From IMG/VR virus record IMGVR_UViG_3300032285_003899, positions 1 to 64,000 of that record: a DNA stretch of 64,000 bases; one strand, written 5' to 3'. The translations under genes were made by a program, and so were the position numbers. Positions 40,384-45,685 of this stretch are shown here, piece after piece. This stretch comes from a virus. Taxonomy: Duplodnaviria > Caudoviricetes. Positions within the stretch are counted from its first letter, which is position 1. Each line of letters begins with the position of its first letter. The notes under the pieces are model-generated. The model searched no databases, was not told the origin of the DNA, and saw nothing but the letters and a program-made list of their open reading frames with translations.

Positions 40384-40389
40384 GTGTAA
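40384..40389 (+). promoter_or_regulatory. GTGTAA motif (putative late promoter)
   Basis: 14 nt upstream of ATG 40398. Confidence 0.6.
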
Positions 40390-40397
40390 TAACAGAT

Positions 40398-41357
40398 ATG
40401 ACAACCAAACTACCAATATTAATAATATTGGTTTTTTTATTTACTGGATGTTTCTCTACTATAAGACCAGCGAAACAAATTGATGATAATCAAAAAATAA
40501 TAGAAAAACAAGAAAAGAAAGTAGACAGCACGTTAGTCGAAATGGAAAAAAACGACAAAAGCAAGAGGATACAAACCTCTGGTCTTTCTGTCGGCATTGA
40601 ACATTCTCTTAATCAAATAACAAATGCGCCTGTTCAAGTTGACACGGCGAGAAAATTAAATGAAAGAGTCATTTCTATTGTCGGTTCTCCACACATTGAT
40701 GAAATAAAAAGAATCAAAGCTACTGTAGATCTTTTAAATTCAGCTTTAGTTGAAGAACGCAGAAAAGGAGAAGAACTGCTTGCTCAACGCGATGATATAA
40801 TTAATAAACTTCAAAAAGAAAAGTCAGAGTTAAATCAAAAATACGATGATCAACTTTGGCAATTAACCGATAAAGCTAAAGAAGTAGCTAAAGAAGCTGA
40901 TCAAAATAAAGCAGTATTAGATTCAATGAGCGGAATGTTTGGTCTAAATGCTGTAATGTGGGGATTAAAGAAGTTTGTTGTTAGCGCATTGACCGCAATA
41001 GTTGTATTTGTAGTCGTTTTTGTTCTTCTTCGTCTTCTCGCTACAGTTCATCCTGCCGCTGCCGCCGCGTTTTCTATATTTAATATGCTAGGATCAGCAG
41101 TAATTTCCATAGTTAAAGCTTTGACCCCAAAAGCATTTGAGATGAATAATTTTGCAACAAAAGATAAAGTAGAAGAATTCAAATCTCCTCTCGTAAAAAT
41201 CGTAGATGTTATTCAAGAGCTTAAAGAAAAACAAAAAGAGTCTCCTGATAAAATTTATCCATTAAATGAGATTTTAAAACGTTTTGATAAAGAAATGGAT
41301 AGCCATGAAAAAGATTTAATCGACGATATTCTTAAAGAACAAAAATGGATCAAATAA
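40398..41357 (+). CDS. lipoprotein with coiled coil and C-terminal TM segment(s), candidate unimolecular spanin
   Basis: Lipobox FTG-C18, heptad-rich aa ~100-175, hydrophobic aa ~193-240. Confidence 0.55.
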   Translation: MTTKLPILIILVFLFTGCFSTIRPAKQIDDNQKIIEKQEKKVDSTLVEMEKNDKSKRIQTSGLSVGIEHSLNQITNAPVQVDTARKLNERVISIVGSPHIDEIKRIKATVDLLNSALVEERRKGEELLAQRDDIINKLQKEKSELNQKYDDQLWQLTDKAKEVAKEADQNKAVLDSMSGMFGLNAVMWGLKKFVVSALTAIVVFVVVFVLLRLLATVHPAAAAAFSIFNMLGSAVISIVKALTPKAFEMNNFATKDKVEEFKSPLVKIVDVIQELKEKQKESPDKIYPLNEILKRFDKEMDSHEKDLIDDILKEQKWIK

Positions 41358-41740
41358 TTATGGACACAAACAACGTACATATCATATCTCAACAAGTATT
41401 AGAATCTACAGGCCAAGATCTTACTGGAAAGTATGTTTGGTTTTTCATTGTCGGACTTATAGCGTTGATGTTCAAATCTAGCATTGAAAAGTTTGCTGCT
41501 GCTTTATTTATGTTTGTTGGAAACGATTATAAAGAAGACGATGTAGTATATGTTGATGGAAAACCGGGAAGAATTGTAAGAGTAGGTTTAACCAAGACTG
41601 TATTTTTTATTTATGATGTTGTAGATGGCAAAGTTCTTGGTGGCAGCAAACTCGTAGTTCAAAACGAGAGATTATCTGGTCTTAACATTGAAAAACCTTT
41701 ACCCAACTTGGATCTTAGCAGATTCAAGAAAAATGATTAA
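41345..41740 (+). CDS. small membrane protein with MscS-like beta domain
   Basis: TM YVWFFIVGLIALMF; Y.EDDVVYVDG..GRIVRVGL.KT. Confidence 0.55.
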   Translation: MDQIIMDTNNVHIISQQVLESTGQDLTGKYVWFFIVGLIALMFKSSIEKFAAALFMFVGNDYKEDDVVYVDGKPGRIVRVGLTKTVFFIYDVVDGKVLGGSKLVVQNERLSGLNIEKPLPNLDLSRFKKND

Positions 41741-41742
41741 AG

Positions 41743-42384
41743 ATGAGGAGAATACTTTTTTCTCTATTATTATTTACAAATTTATTTGCGGCAGAATTTA
41801 AATCGGCAAATTATTATTCTAAAAACTATTTATTCGATGCTCAAGTATATTCAGTCAACACTTTTATATCTGAAAATAGTATCAGCCATCAATTAGGGGA
41901 TTTTACTCCCCATCTTGATTTTGTACAATATCAAGGCTTAGATCAATATAAAGAAAGCGATTTTGGATTCGGCAGTGAGTATGAATTATCAGAGAAGTTA
42001 AATTTAAATACTGGTAGTTGGTACTATTACTATTATAGTGCTGGCGATCATTATTTTGAACCATACTTATCATTTACTTATGATTGGATACTATCGCCAA
42101 CAATTTATTTTAGTGTTATAACTTATAATAACACTCCAAGAGCAACCATTAGTTTTGACTACAGCAAAGATATTACTGAAAAACTACAATTAAATATAAA
42201 ACCTGTAATTGGAACTGCGGATTATGATATAAGATATGGTTATTATGGAATGGTATTTATTTTCGATTACAACATAAATAAAAATTTTACGCTATACCTT
42301 GGTGGTGAAGTAGATAAACCATTTAGCTCACCCGACAATTCAATTGTTTATACTTATTCATCTGGAATCAAAATATCTTTATGA
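41743..42384 (+). CDS. outer-membrane beta-barrel protein (TorF-like putative porin)
   Basis: Signal peptide, alternating aromatic beta strands, terminal strand SGIKISL. Confidence 0.6.
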   Translation: MRRILFSLLLFTNLFAAEFKSANYYSKNYLFDAQVYSVNTFISENSISHQLGDFTPHLDFVQYQGLDQYKESDFGFGSEYELSEKLNLNTGSWYYYYYSAGDHYFEPYLSFTYDWILSPTIYFSVITYNNTPRATISFDYSKDITEKLQLNIKPVIGTADYDIRYGYYGMVFIFDYNINKNFTLYLGGEVDKPFSSPDNSIVYTYSSGIKISL

Positions 42385-43832
42385 AACGTATTAAGTTTAA
42401 TTTAAGATTTGCTTTATCTACTAGTACAATCTTTATTTTAATACTAGTAAGCATGGTATATTTCTTTTTATTGATATTTGCAATTGAAGATATCGCAAAA
42501 AACAGTTTAAAAAGAAGCTTGAATACGTCTGTTAATATTTGTAGTAGTATTCTTGATTCAAATGAAATTGAAAAATTAACTAAATATGAACAAGAAAAAA
42601 ATGCTATATTTGTTAATTACAGAAAAGCCATTAAAGAAATAAAAAAAGAAGTCGAGGATATTAAATTTGTTTATGTTGTTAGACAGACAGGCACAAATAT
42701 TACTTATATAATAGATTGTGGCGATAATATATCTGAACAAGCTAAATTAGGCGAAATATATGATGACGCTGGAGATGGATTAAAAGAATTATTTAATAAC
42801 CCAATCGAAGGCATAACATTTGAAAAAGAATATTATACAGATAAATGGGGTACATTTTTATCTGCATACAAACCAATATTCAAAAATGGTAAAATAATAT
42901 ATGTTGTTTGTAGCGATATCAAATCTATTGATGTCGAAAAATATATATCTAATTACAAAAAGAAATTCACTTTTGCTTTTTTATTATTACTTGTAATTAT
43001 ATTTCCAATTATATTTTCTATAACAAATATGATTAGAAGACCTCTTAATAAACTAAGAGATGAAATTCTTAAATTAAAAGATTTGGATGTTGATGAGCAT
43101 ATTAATTTTAAAAGCAGCATTAGTGAAGTTAACGACATGATCGATGCTACAGATAAAGTTAAAACTGGATTAAGATCGTTTTCAAAATACGTCCCCGACA
43201 AAGTTGTTAAACAATTAATAAGTCAAGGCAAAGATGCAAAAATTGGAGGAGAAAAAGAATATGTAACAATATTATTTAGCGACATCGAAGGATTCACAAC
43301 CATATCAGAAAATAATGAAACTCAAGAAGTTGTTACTGCATTGAATGAGTATTTTGATATTTATGTTAGATCTTTAGAGGAAAGCGGCGCAACTGTTGAT
43401 AAATTTATTGGTGATGCTGTAATGGCATTTTGGAACGCTCCAAGCAAGGTTGAAAATCATGAATTTGTTGCTGTCAAAACTGCAATGAAAATTGTCAACG
43501 AAATCAATCAGTTAAATGAAAAATGGAAACTAGAAGGTAAAAAATTCATATTTAAAACCAGAATCGGTATTAACTCTGGTGAAGTAATTGTAGGTAATAT
43601 TGGATCAACTAATCGTATTAATTATACTATTACGGGTGATAGTGTAAATTTAGCCTCAAGATTAGAAGGATCAAATAAACAATATAATACTAAAATTTTG
43701 GTCAGTGAAGTCGTATACAACAAAACAAACGATTTAATACAATATAATTATATTGATTATGTCAAAGTTAAAGGTAAAGAGTTGTATGTAAAAATATATC
43801 AACCAGTTCAATTAATCGATAATGTATTATGA
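42381..43832 (+). CDS. membrane sensor class III adenylate cyclase (TM-periplasmic sensor-TM-HAMP-cyclase)
   Basis: LFSDIEGFT, DKFIGDAVMAFW, RIGINSG..VGN.G...R.NYT..GD.VNLASRLE; YTDKWGTFLSAYKPI sensor motif; HAMP. Confidence 0.93.
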   Translation: MKRIKFNLRFALSTSTIFILILVSMVYFFLLIFAIEDIAKNSLKRSLNTSVNICSSILDSNEIEKLTKYEQEKNAIFVNYRKAIKEIKKEVEDIKFVYVVRQTGTNITYIIDCGDNISEQAKLGEIYDDAGDGLKELFNNPIEGITFEKEYYTDKWGTFLSAYKPIFKNGKIIYVVCSDIKSIDVEKYISNYKKKFTFAFLLLLVIIFPIIFSITNMIRRPLNKLRDEILKLKDLDVDEHINFKSSISEVNDMIDATDKVKTGLRSFSKYVPDKVVKQLISQGKDAKIGGEKEYVTILFSDIEGFTTISENNETQEVVTALNEYFDIYVRSLEESGATVDKFIGDAVMAFWNAPSKVENHEFVAVKTAMKIVNEINQLNEKWKLEGKKFIFKTRIGINSGEVIVGNIGSTNRINYTITGDSVNLASRLEGSNKQYNTKILVSEVVYNKTNDLIQYNYIDYVKVKGKELYVKIYQPVQLIDNVL

Positions 43833-44605
43833 AACTCGCAACTCCAAAAAGCATCAAACAAGCATCATTAAAACTATTTAACAAACAAGATATAAGATTA
43901 TTAGTTCTTTATAACTATCTAATCGAAATCTGCAATTACGGAGATAATAAATACCATAAACTTGAAACCAAATATCATGATCTAAATCATTTTTTAACAA
44001 GCGCATCTGTATTTCTTGATATATATACAAACATTGTTGAGAAAAATATAATTAAATTAAATGAACAAGATTTTTTTTGCGGTGTTGTTGCCGTAATGTA
44101 CCACGATATAGGTTTTTTAAAATCAAAAGAAGACAAGAACGGAACTGGAGCGCAATATATTAATACTCATGTAGAAAGAGGCTGTAATTTTATAAGAAAT
44201 AATTTCGACAATATTTTAACTAAAGAAGAAAAAACAAGAATTTGCGAATTAATAATGGTAACAGATTACTTCAAAAAGACAGAAAATTCACAAATAGATC
44301 ATATAGGAGCTTGCGTGGCTTTGGGTGATTGGCTTAGTCAAATGAGCGATGAACAATATGTACAGAAACTTGATAAACTATATGAAGAATTCGATGAGTT
44401 TCAGAGATATCATAATTTATTTATGTATAACGGATTAGAAGATTTGGTAAAAAAGACCCCCGGTTTTTGGTATAAATTAGTTAAACCATTATTAGATAAT
44501 AAGTTTTACGGATTATACGAACACGCTTCAAATAATTACATCTTAAGTATAGAAAAAAACATCGATAAATTAGTTAAAGAATACAATTTAAATCACGCTA
44601 TTTAA
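43829..44605 (+). CDS. HD-domain metal-dependent phosphohydrolase
   Basis: YHDLNH, YHDIGF, GTGAQY...HVER, LGDWLSQM, TPGFW. Confidence 0.85.
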   Translation: MKLATPKSIKQASLKLFNKQDIRLLVLYNYLIEICNYGDNKYHKLETKYHDLNHFLTSASVFLDIYTNIVEKNIIKLNEQDFFCGVVAVMYHDIGFLKSKEDKNGTGAQYINTHVERGCNFIRNNFDNILTKEEKTRICELIMVTDYFKKTENSQIDHIGACVALGDWLSQMSDEQYVQKLDKLYEEFDEFQRYHNLFMYNGLEDLVKKTPGFWYKLVKPLLDNKFYGLYEHASNNYILSIEKNIDKLVKEYNLNHAI

Positions 44606-44640: not shown

Positions 44641-44646
44641 GTGTAA
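44641..44646 (+). promoter_or_regulatory. GTGTAA motif (putative late promoter)
   Basis: 14 nt upstream of ATG 44655. Confidence 0.6.
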
Positions 44647-44654
44647 AAAACGAT

Positions 44655-44876
44655 ATGTCAGATCAGTATAATAATAATAGCTATGATGCTGTTCTATCAA
44701 GGATGGAACAAAAACTAGACACTATTGCAGAAAACATTGGTGACATTAAAAAAAGTCACAAAGACTTAGAAACGCGAGTAGCTGGTTTAGAATATTTTAA
44801 ATATTATTTAGCGGGAATAGTCGCAGCCGTTACATTCGCAGCCAATTATTTAATGAATAAAGTAAAGAATGGTTGA
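44655..44876 (+). CDS. small coiled-coil protein with C-terminal TM (holin/XhlA-like)
   Basis: LSRMEQKLD..LE.RV..LE then TM YYLAGIVAAVTFAANYL and a basic tail. Confidence 0.5.
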   Translation: MSDQYNNNSYDAVLSRMEQKLDTIAENIGDIKKSHKDLETRVAGLEYFKYYLAGIVAAVTFAANYLMNKVKNG

Positions 44877-44927: not shown

Positions 44928-45632
44928 ATGATTAAGTCATTTAAGTTATTCATCGTGTCAATTCTAGCCTCAGTCGCAGTTTTTGCTGCGGATACTGAGT
45001 CTTCAATCAGTGCCAGCATTAACGCTGGTTACAACAACCACTACATCGTAAACGGTCTAGCCAAGACTAGCGGATCAGCATTTGCTGGTTTCGATATTGG
45101 AAAGGCTTATTTCGGCGTAGACACTTATGTCGGTGGAGTTATTCTTCCTGATTCTAATAGTATTGATGAATCTCACTGGAAGGTAGGTCTTGGCAAGGCT
45201 CTAAAGATTACCGAGAAGTTCTCGCTTCGTGGTGATTTGCAAGCACTTCGTCACCAGAGTTCAATTGTTGGAGGTCGCAATTCTACCGAAATCGCTCCAA
45301 AGGTTGCATTGGTAAATCCATATCTAACTCCTTATATTCGTGGTTCACATGATTTCAACCTAGGTCAATCAGGTTATATCGTTGGCGTTGAACGCCCAAC
45401 TGATGTGTTTGGCTGGTTCACTGTTAATCCTGTTGTTGAATACGGTAAGTTTACTGATTATAACGTAGTAGCTGCTAAGATTGGTGTTTCTCGTACCTTC
45501 TTCAACCATCTTCAACCTTATGCCGAGGTAGGATATTACGACAATAATTTTCAAGCTTCCAAGTACAAGTTTGCAAGTCAAGAGTTCAGCGGCGATGTAG
45601 TTGCAGTCGCAGGTGTTCGCTGGAACTTCTAA
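44928..45632 (+). CDS. outer-membrane beta-barrel protein
   Basis: Signal peptide ending AVFA, amphipathic strands, terminal GVRWNF (BAM-type terminal Phe). Confidence 0.8.
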   Translation: MIKSFKLFIVSILASVAVFAADTESSISASINAGYNNHYIVNGLAKTSGSAFAGFDIGKAYFGVDTYVGGVILPDSNSIDESHWKVGLGKALKITEKFSLRGDLQALRHQSSIVGGRNSTEIAPKVALVNPYLTPYIRGSHDFNLGQSGYIVGVERPTDVFGWFTVNPVVEYGKFTDYNVVAAKIGVSRTFFNHLQPYAEVGYYDNNFQASKYKFASQEFSGDVVAVAGVRWNF

Positions 45633-45657: not shown

Positions 45658-45685
45658 ACCGCCAACGAAAGTTGGCGGTTTTTTT
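45658..45685 (+). terminator. intrinsic terminator
   Basis: ACCGCCAAC-GAAA-GTTGGCGGT plus T tract. Confidence 0.88.

Follow-up and report, generated by a model that had tools for sequence, protein, structure and literature searches.

A putative second-messenger make-and-break gene pair within a conserved five-gene envelope block of an uncultured jumbo phage lineage

Phages sense small molecules through soluble receptors, for example arbitrium and VqmA-phi. Might a phage also bring into the cell a receptor that sits in the membrane, together with an enzyme that removes the signal this receptor makes? The question is raised by a locus on IMG/VR virus record IMGVR_UViG_3300032285_003899 (Duplodnaviria; Caudoviricetes), of which we analysed positions 1 to 64,000 (hereafter the window, 64,000 nucleotides of one strand). 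Positions 41,743 to 44,605 hold genes for a beta-barrel protein, a receptor-type class III nucleotide cyclase and an HD-domain protein, and an earlier note, made from the sequence alone, had read these genes as a cassette for cyclic AMP (cAMP) signalling across the envelope. We conclude, with a probability of roughly 0.55, that the cyclase and the HD protein are a phage-encoded pair that makes and breaks a second messenger, and that the pair lies within a block of five envelope genes. If this is true, the virus would bring along a signalling device that works at the membrane, made up of a receptor-type cyclase and an enzyme that degrades its product, and the pair suggests that the phage may set the level of a second messenger in the infected cell.

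The window sequence bore out the three co-directional open reading frames (ORFs) at the coordinates given earlier, and both of the ATGA stop/start overlaps described between them, at 42381-42384 and 43829-43832, are present. In the ORF list the genes are as follows.

41743..42384, plus strand: ORF1, the barrel protein, 213 amino acids (aa)
42381..43832, plus strand: ORF2, the receptor cyclase, 483 aa
43829..44605, plus strand: ORF3, the HD protein, 258 aa, cytoplasmic

The catalytic domain of ORF2 matched PF00211 over aa 292-467 (92.8 bits against a cut-off of 21.9, E 2.6e-26), and among solved structures its best relatives are enzymes proven to be adenylyl cyclases: Pseudomonas aeruginosa CyaB (3r5g, E 6.6e-30), bPAC/OaPAC and Spirulina CyaC (1wc0). 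The cyclase motifs quoted in the earlier note are present as FSDIEG (D301), DKFIGD (K341 and D345), NYT (T416) and NLASR (N423 and R427). On alignment, FSDIEGFT, DKFIGD, NYTITG and VNLASRLE fall on the matching motifs of CyaB residue for residue, with K341 (DKF) and T416 (NYT) at the positions of DKF and DYT in CyaB. D301, K341, D345, T416, N423, R427 and K464 were invariant in all 121 sequences of the lineage. In class III enzymes, a lysine together with a threonine that replaces the aspartate of class IIIa marks the ATP-using enzymes of class IIIb, which often respond to bicarbonate. Because ORF2 has this Lys/Thr pair, it is assigned by the established class III rules to the class IIIb adenylyl-type cyclases, and its predicted product is cAMP. 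The claim of an intact class IIIb-type enzyme therefore stood for every kind of residue considered, as the metal, specificity and transition-state residues are all aligned and invariant.

We divided ORF2 into the following parts.

42417..42485, plus strand: first transmembrane segment (TM1), aa 13-35 (wider span aa 6-40), after a basic N-terminus and N-in, from hydropathy
42486..42965, plus strand: periplasmic sensor domain, aa 36-195, ~160 aa
42966..43034, plus strand: second transmembrane segment (TM2), aa 196-218 (wider span aa 192-220), from hydropathy
43035..43235, plus strand: HAMP-like linker, aa 219-285, 90% conserved within the lineage
43248..43790, plus strand: class III cyclase catalytic domain, aa 290-470, from PF00211 and the CyaB alignment

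Two basic stretches, one at the N-terminus and one following TM2, argue that the sensor domain is periplasmic and the cyclase domain cytoplasmic. An order of transmembrane (TM) segment, periplasmic sensor, TM segment, HAMP domain and cyclase had been proposed earlier; the two TM segments and the cyclase were found, and the HAMP domain gave only a weak match, PF00672 reaching E 0.05 and 14.4 bits on the isolated linker fragment against a cut-off of 25. In NCBIfam, the linker region resembles the N-terminal halves of CreC (E 1.6e-6) and AtoS (E 1.8e-4). The sensor domain had no Pfam match. Its profile gave a marginal match to the dCache ligand-binding domain of Campylobacter jejuni Tlp3 (E 0.06), and its feature neighbours in the Atlas carry sCache_3 (0.92-0.94), a weak lead; the domain is probably Cache/PDC-like. 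ORF2 and CyaB thus share a homologous catalytic domain with identical Asp, Lys/Thr and Asn/Arg pairs, and in both a membrane-anchored N-terminal input module precedes it. The input itself differs: that of CyaB is the MASE2 membrane domain, whereas that of ORF2 would consist of two TM segments, a periplasmic Cache-like domain and a HAMP-like linker. ORF2 also differs from CyaB in being phage-encoded and flanked by a barrel gene and a gene for a phosphodiesterase (PDE)-like protein.

That protein is ORF3, which has neither a signal peptide nor a TM segment. We identified it from its precomputed Pfam assignment, its NCBIfam match, its motifs and its fold. The precomputed assignment of ORF3 and its relatives is PF28239, named Npun_R2479 by the Atlas; a Pfam-A scan whose set did not include PF28239 gave only HD-CE for ORF3, at E 0.046. 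NCBIfam NF045583 matched ORF3 at E 4.7e-14, and since its 52 bits compare with an equivalog cut-off of 400 bits, ORF3 is a divergent member of the Npun_R2479 family and no equivalog. In an alignment of 25 phage and cellular sequences, H50, H54, H92, D93, G105, G107, H114, D167, Q171, E187 and E190 were invariant. T210 and F213, invariant residues of the KTPxFW...P motif, might occupy the positions of the PDE purine clamp.

An AlphaFold2 (AF2) model of ORF3 was obtained with a predicted local distance difference test score (pLDDT) of 85 and a predicted template modelling score (pTM) of 0.86. When the model was compared with 48,161 representatives of the PDB, the top 16 matches were all class I PDEs (Z 15.2-16.8, root-mean-square deviation 3.3-4.4, 216-234 of the 258 residues aligned), and Foldseek agreed on class I PDEs (probability 1.00, E ~2e-4). 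A profile of the Npun_R2479 family, searched against PDB sequences, led to the same enzymes: 58 of the 60 matches listed were PDE5 or PDE10, at marginal E-values of 0.005-0.08, and the profile alignment placed YH-x3-H...HD of the family on the acid and metal residues of PDE5 (YHNWRH...HD). The PDEs were reached by this wider family profile alone; phmmer and a lineage profile of ORF3 found nothing meaningful among the PDB sequences. A tblastn search of ORF3 against 50,697 phage records gave no match.

The family to which ORF3 belongs has 624 representatives at 50% identity (from a scan of 1.84 billion representatives), mainly in Verrucomicrobiota, and a profile search reached its cellular members from E 3e-30. 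Several members have C-terminal GAF domains and sub-threshold matches to PDEase_I (PF00233). One member, P0333, has HisKA, REC, class III cyclase and HD domains in one chain, and is 28% identical to ORF3 by BLASTP (E 7e-22). The HD-domain hydrolase of the earlier note was thus supported and, by fold, profile and domain fusions, sharpened: the evidence, including the modelled fold, points to a protein that is like the class I PDEs of cyclic nucleoside monophosphates (cNMPs) but is no member of PF00233. Its likeness to the class I PDEs (PDE1-11, RhoPDE and the trypanosomatid enzymes) lies in the extent of the structural alignment, in the YH-x3-H and HD motifs, and in the GAF domains that some Npun_R2479 members carry, as PDE2/5/6/10/11 do. 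It differs from them in that it is ~70 residues shorter than PDE catalytic domains and belongs to a separate prokaryotic family, PF28239.

We found no reported activity for the Npun_R2479 family in the literature, only one incidental mention. The family is a candidate prokaryotic, and viral, counterpart of the eukaryotic class I PDEs, complete with GAF and cyclase fusions, and offers a testable candidate for cAMP or cyclic GMP degradation in bacteria without CpdA-type enzymes. As the three proteins of the trio are small and easily expressed, such predictions are cheap to test. In cellular genomes, the family genes often stand near a gene for a Rho-like factor (36 loci) and one for a PilB/GspE-type ATPase with an MshEN domain (32 loci), a neighbourhood that is probably clade synteny and uninformative on function.

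ORF1 has a Sec-type signal peptide at ~aa 1-16, and its AF2 model is a 12-stranded barrel (pLDDT 86.8) with short loops and very short periplasmic turns, in line with the signal-peptide beta-barrel described earlier. In the VIA exhaustive structural comparison, the model matched PcoB (Z 18.8), KdgM (18.7), VhGalP (18.2) and NanC (17.4), and in Foldseek NanC at E 1.8e-7. Like PcoB and the KdgM/NanC porins, it is a short-looped, monomer-sized barrel of ~200 residues (Z 17-19). Unlike the KdgM/NanC porins, it belongs to no Pfam or NCBIfam sequence family at E <= 0.1; nor did PHROG, at the same threshold, or PADLOC give a family for it. A word-based search found homologues in the phage lineage alone. 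A barrel profile was run on two samples of genomes. In the first, 401 genomes of the phylum to which a Betaproteobacteria metagenome-assembled genome (MAG) belongs, 4 genomes gave short marginal matches; in the second, 301 genomes of the phylum that includes a Prosthecobacter MAG, 7 gave distant full-length-like matches (best E 2.4e-8). The cellular relatives found for the phage barrel are thus few, distant (~25% identical) and from Verrucomicrobiota, and they are not beside cyclases: in six barrel-match loci inspected, no cyclase or HD gene stood within 7 kb.

Is the trio a stable unit of phage genomes? The order barrel, cyclase, HD was kept in all 15 related IMG/VR contigs, which come from different metagenomes and include a 295,831-bp viral contig rated complete, and no cellular genome in the sample had the trio. 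Conservation of the three genes together was therefore confirmed. The idea that they form a self-contained module was not: in every relative with enough upstream sequence, the trio is preceded by two further genes, while the genes beyond the block, before these two and after the HD gene, vary from genome to genome. Thus, the conserved unit consists of five genes, the first two being those below.

40398..41357, plus strand: lipoprotein/TM protein, first gene of the block, with an LFTGC lipoprotein signal and a long helical periplasmic part (hydropathy)
41345..41740, plus strand: small membrane protein of 131 aa, second gene of the block, 82-86% identical among relatives

In the first protein, aa 185-242 also form a double hydrophobic segment, which would anchor it in the inner membrane, and the tail is charged. 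The second contains a stretch that weakly resembles the MscS beta-domain (PF00924, E 0.027, below the cut-off). The ratio of nonsynonymous to synonymous substitution rates (dN/dS) is 0.03-0.04 for the 131-aa gene and, pairwise, 0.05-0.15 for the barrel, cyclase and HD genes, with dS near saturation; judged by these values, the trio is under purifying selection.

The ATGA overlaps had been taken as a sign that the three genes are translationally coupled; the data did not support a special link. Overlaps of 4 nt occur at ~23 of the ~65 same-strand gene junctions in the ORF list of the window, about a third, and in relatives the cyclase-HD junction is a gap of 1-6 nt. Because the overlaps are common in the window and are replaced by gaps in relatives, they reflect dense phage gene packing and no special link.

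The setting of the locus is that of a phage. Phage genes stand on both sides of the trio, tRNA genes and an HNH endonuclease gene lie near it, and the gene at 39045-40355 matches a virion structural protein (PHROG 1645, E 8e-144) and is ~67% identical to cyanomyovirus proteins. We found no close record at the DNA level in the phage collection. In metagenomes the lineage is common, with at least 120 cyclase clusters at 90% identity and thousands of candidates scored; it is an abundant, uncultured, freshwater-type jumbo phage of ~296 kb.

From these results we propose the following course of events. The 483-aa protein would insert into the host inner membrane with its N-terminus inside, two TM segments and a dimeric arrangement. 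Its ~160-aa periplasmic, probably Cache-like domain would signal through the HAMP-like linker to the class IIIb cyclase domain, whose cytoplasmic activity would turn ATP into 3',5'-cAMP. As an analogue of the class I-type cyclic-nucleotide PDEs, the soluble HD protein of 258 aa would hydrolyse the cyclic nucleotide at the metal site formed by H50, H54, H92-D93 and D167, so that the messenger level in the infected cell would track the periplasmic input and not accumulate. The 12-stranded barrel would be exported to the host outer membrane, where it would most likely serve as a small solute channel or otherwise change permeability. Here, we infer the product, the PDE activity, the topology and a possible coupling with the barrel. 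For the phage, the gain might be, for example, catabolic or motility reprogramming of the host, or the timing of late functions or lysis. That the barrel feeds ligand to the sensor, as the earlier note had suggested, is speculative. A link between cyclase and HD genes is also suggested by a second cyclase-domain gene, inserted at the same spot in seven relatives (described below).

A wider proposal, which we hold as tentative and rather doubtful, is that the whole five-gene block is a trans-envelope sensory system, in which the receptor cyclase, together with new components of the outer membrane and across the envelope, reports an outside or periplasmic condition (a nutrient, an ion or CO2, or superinfection), and cAMP decides when late development or lysis takes place, or reprogrammes the host. 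Were it true, phage quorum-sensing decisions would have a counterpart that works through a membrane receptor, with cAMP shaped by the first viral or prokaryotic family of class I-type PDEs.

Several observations weigh against the reading of ORF2 and ORF3 as a pair that makes and breaks a cyclic nucleotide. ORF3 had no match to PDEase_I (PF00233) at E <= 0.1; its family relatives reach 18-20.7 bits against the cut-off of 24.8. The class I PDE signature in PROSITE is H-D-x2-H, and ORF3 has HDIGF, without the His four residues after HD. The structural margin of the PDEs over generic HD proteins is modest, with Z 16.8 against 14.7. Among cellular loci of the HD family, mostly from Opitutales and other Verrucomicrobiota, a cyclase domain stood within 5 kb in only 2 of 80, and linkage to a cyclase is thus no general property of the Npun_R2479 family. 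The complete related phage gave no match to the cNMP-binding domain PF00027, so that the signal would have to be read by a host protein or by one as yet unrecognised. Adjacent enzymes for making and degrading the same molecule could be futile unless they are regulated differently. Finally, the periplasmic turns of the barrel are very short, and no link between barrel and sensor was detected beyond adjacency.

It is conceivable, if improbable, that the chemistry is not that of cAMP: the cyclase might make another nucleotide, or ORF3 might be a general phosphohydrolase, of the (p)ppGpp, deoxynucleoside triphosphate, 2',3'-cNMP or polyphosphate type, that is merely PDE-shaped. Further HD enzymes do score well against the model of ORF3, starting with the generic HD protein 2pq7 (Z 14.7 over 172 residues) and continuing with YpgQ (13.4), PPX/GppA (~12), SpoT/Rel (~10) and HD-GYP (9.5), and ORF3 does not reach PF00233. 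However, these other families align over 130-176 residues of ORF3 compared with ~230 for the PDEs, and the PDB matches of the family profile are PDEs as well. For the cyclase, the PycC (pyrimidine cyclase) models of PADLOC match the catalytic domain at E 4e-36, which would allow a different product. Yet the domain has the Lys/Thr pair of class IIIb, and the solved PycC-type entry 7r65 scores E 6.2e-5, far below the E 6.6e-30 of CyaB.

A second alternative, which we likewise consider unlikely, leaves the receptor cyclase with a separate role and makes ORF3 a counter-defence enzyme that destroys the cyclic nucleotides of host immunity, as Apyc1 and Acb1 do. It is established that there are phage nucleases which break down the cyclic-nucleotide signals of immunity (PMC9117128). 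The variation of the locus could be read in this way. The HD gene occurs in two forms that are ~53% identical, one in the window, L001 and L014 and the other in the remaining relatives (for example, 43829-44605 against L003:7451-8230), and the cyclases beside the two forms are 76-89% identical. Where the HD proteins share 53% identity, the cyclases share 84%, a divergence between sub-lineages that is far greater in the HD gene. Despite this, the HD gene was never lost, and the two forms suggest allelic replacement by recombination. Counter-defence would also agree with the rarity of cyclases beside cellular family members (2 of 80).

The locus takes up another gene as well. In 7 of the 15 related loci, the 131-aa gene and the barrel gene are separated by an inserted gene for a 591-aa ankyrin-repeat protein that ends in a divergent C-terminal class III cyclase domain (PF00211, 22.5 bits); the window does not have this gene.

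L005:1124-2899, L008, L009:3534-5309, L010 and L012, with partial copies in L007 and L011: ankyrin-cyclase gene
L097:70-1842: ankyrin-cyclase gene of the complete relative, ~17 kb from the trio and ~95% identical

In the complete relative this gene is ~95% identical although the genes beside it are only ~76% identical, and it looks recently mobile. Its presence suggests a 'cyclic-nucleotide island' and not one machine, which again would suit counter-defence. What speaks for a shared role of the cyclase and ORF3 instead is their strict adjacency in all 15 loci, the natural cyclase-HD fusion in P0333, and the GAF fusions of the family, which point to housekeeping cNMP signalling. The low dN/dS (0.07-0.15) gives no sign of arms-race diversification. 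Apyc1 has a metallo-beta-lactamase fold and Acb1 a 2H fold, both unrelated to the fold of ORF3.

We regard it as very improbable that the trio is a Pycsar-type defence or a means of superinfection exclusion, with the HD protein or the barrel as toxic effector. The PycC matches of the cyclase and a weak match of ORF3 to the Cas10-HD model of PADLOC (E 5e-5) would fit such a system, and phage-encoded outer-membrane proteins often act in exclusion. However, the trio has no cNMP-binding, SAVED, CARF or TIR domain, the complete relative has no PF00027, ORF3 is a single PDE-like domain without a sensor part, and the cyclase has a periplasmic input domain, which Pycsar cyclases do not. A Pycsar system proper was rejected, since cNMP-binding and TIR domains are missing from the neighbouring genes and there is thus no effector.

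That the trio is decaying cargo or a piece of host chromosome wrongly joined to a viral contig in assembly, to which the GC content of 0.27 in the 2-kb bin 42001-44000 (against 0.33-0.34 in neighbouring bins) might have pointed, has a negligible probability and, for the host fragment, was ruled out, given the same gene order in 15 independent contigs including the complete phage, phage genes on both sides, intact frames, invariant catalytic residues and strong purifying selection.

Returning to the make-and-break pair, we asked whether it has a precedent. The earlier note knew of no such phage module, and our literature search found no characterised phage cyclase/PDE pair or module; the cyclase part of the claim needs amendment, as phage class III cyclases have already been annotated in the T4-like pelagiphage HTVC008M and Methylophilales phage Melnitz (Kyanoviridae). 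Their catalytic domains are 34-36% identical to that of ORF2, and they, too, adjoin a gene for an outer-membrane pore, CsgG, in a cluster for curli and type VIII secretion that includes a FecR-domain protein. They differ in that they are 611-683 aa long, have other N-terminal parts, come last in a curli secretion cluster, and are accompanied neither by an HD/PDE partner nor by a KdgM-like barrel. Such cyclases have been discussed as possible curli regulators and not as part of a make/break pair (PMC9599517). The closest analogy to the pair itself is eukaryotic: Marchantia CAPE unites a class III adenylyl cyclase and a class I PDE in one protein (PMC5159850, PMC8115329). P0333, with its Npun_R2479-type HD domain, is an analogous bacterial fusion. 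In CAPE, a single polypeptide contains a bona fide PF00233 domain, whereas the phage has two genes and an HD protein of a divergent family.

To see how the block is delimited, we considered sequence signals around it. GTGTAA stands out by its position: about 8-9 of its 14 plus-strand occurrences in the window stand 14-16 nt before an ATG, and all but one of these are listed gene starts. The motif is rarer in the window than composition predicts (14 against ~25), and relatives L001, L003, L005 and L009 do not conserve it at the equivalent sites. It might serve the phage as a promoter or as an initiation signal. The five-gene block is bracketed by GTGTAA-N8-ATG at 40384 and 44641, with no intergenic GTGTAA between the two. 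These occurrences and the features that follow the block are listed here.

16249, 20897, 31141, 32510, 39031, 40384, 44641 and 53600, plus strand: GTGTAA before gene starts, from the window motif scan
40384, plus strand: GTGTAA, 14 nt before the ATG of the gene at 40398..41357
44641..44646, plus strand: GTGTAA-N8-ATG, start of the next unit, which comprises the 73-aa TM protein and a second barrel
44655-44876: 73-aa TM protein, downstream of ORF3
44928-45632: second signal-peptide beta-barrel-like protein, 234 aa (PF13505 at E 0.0045 and OmpO/Ax21 at E 0.02, both below cut-off)
45658-45679: strong intrinsic terminator with a 9-bp stem and a T-run, the only strong one in the region

Neither the 73-aa TM protein nor the 234-aa second barrel was found in the 15 related loci. 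Matches to sigma-70-type promoters were no commoner in the region than in shuffled sequences. Shine-Dalgarno (SD)-like 4-mers occur upstream of 3 of 65 plus-strand gene starts, against a background of 6.4%, and the upstream regions are A-rich. The rarity of SD-like sites suggests a host with SD-independent initiation, such as Bacteroidota, some cyanobacteria or streamlined taxa.

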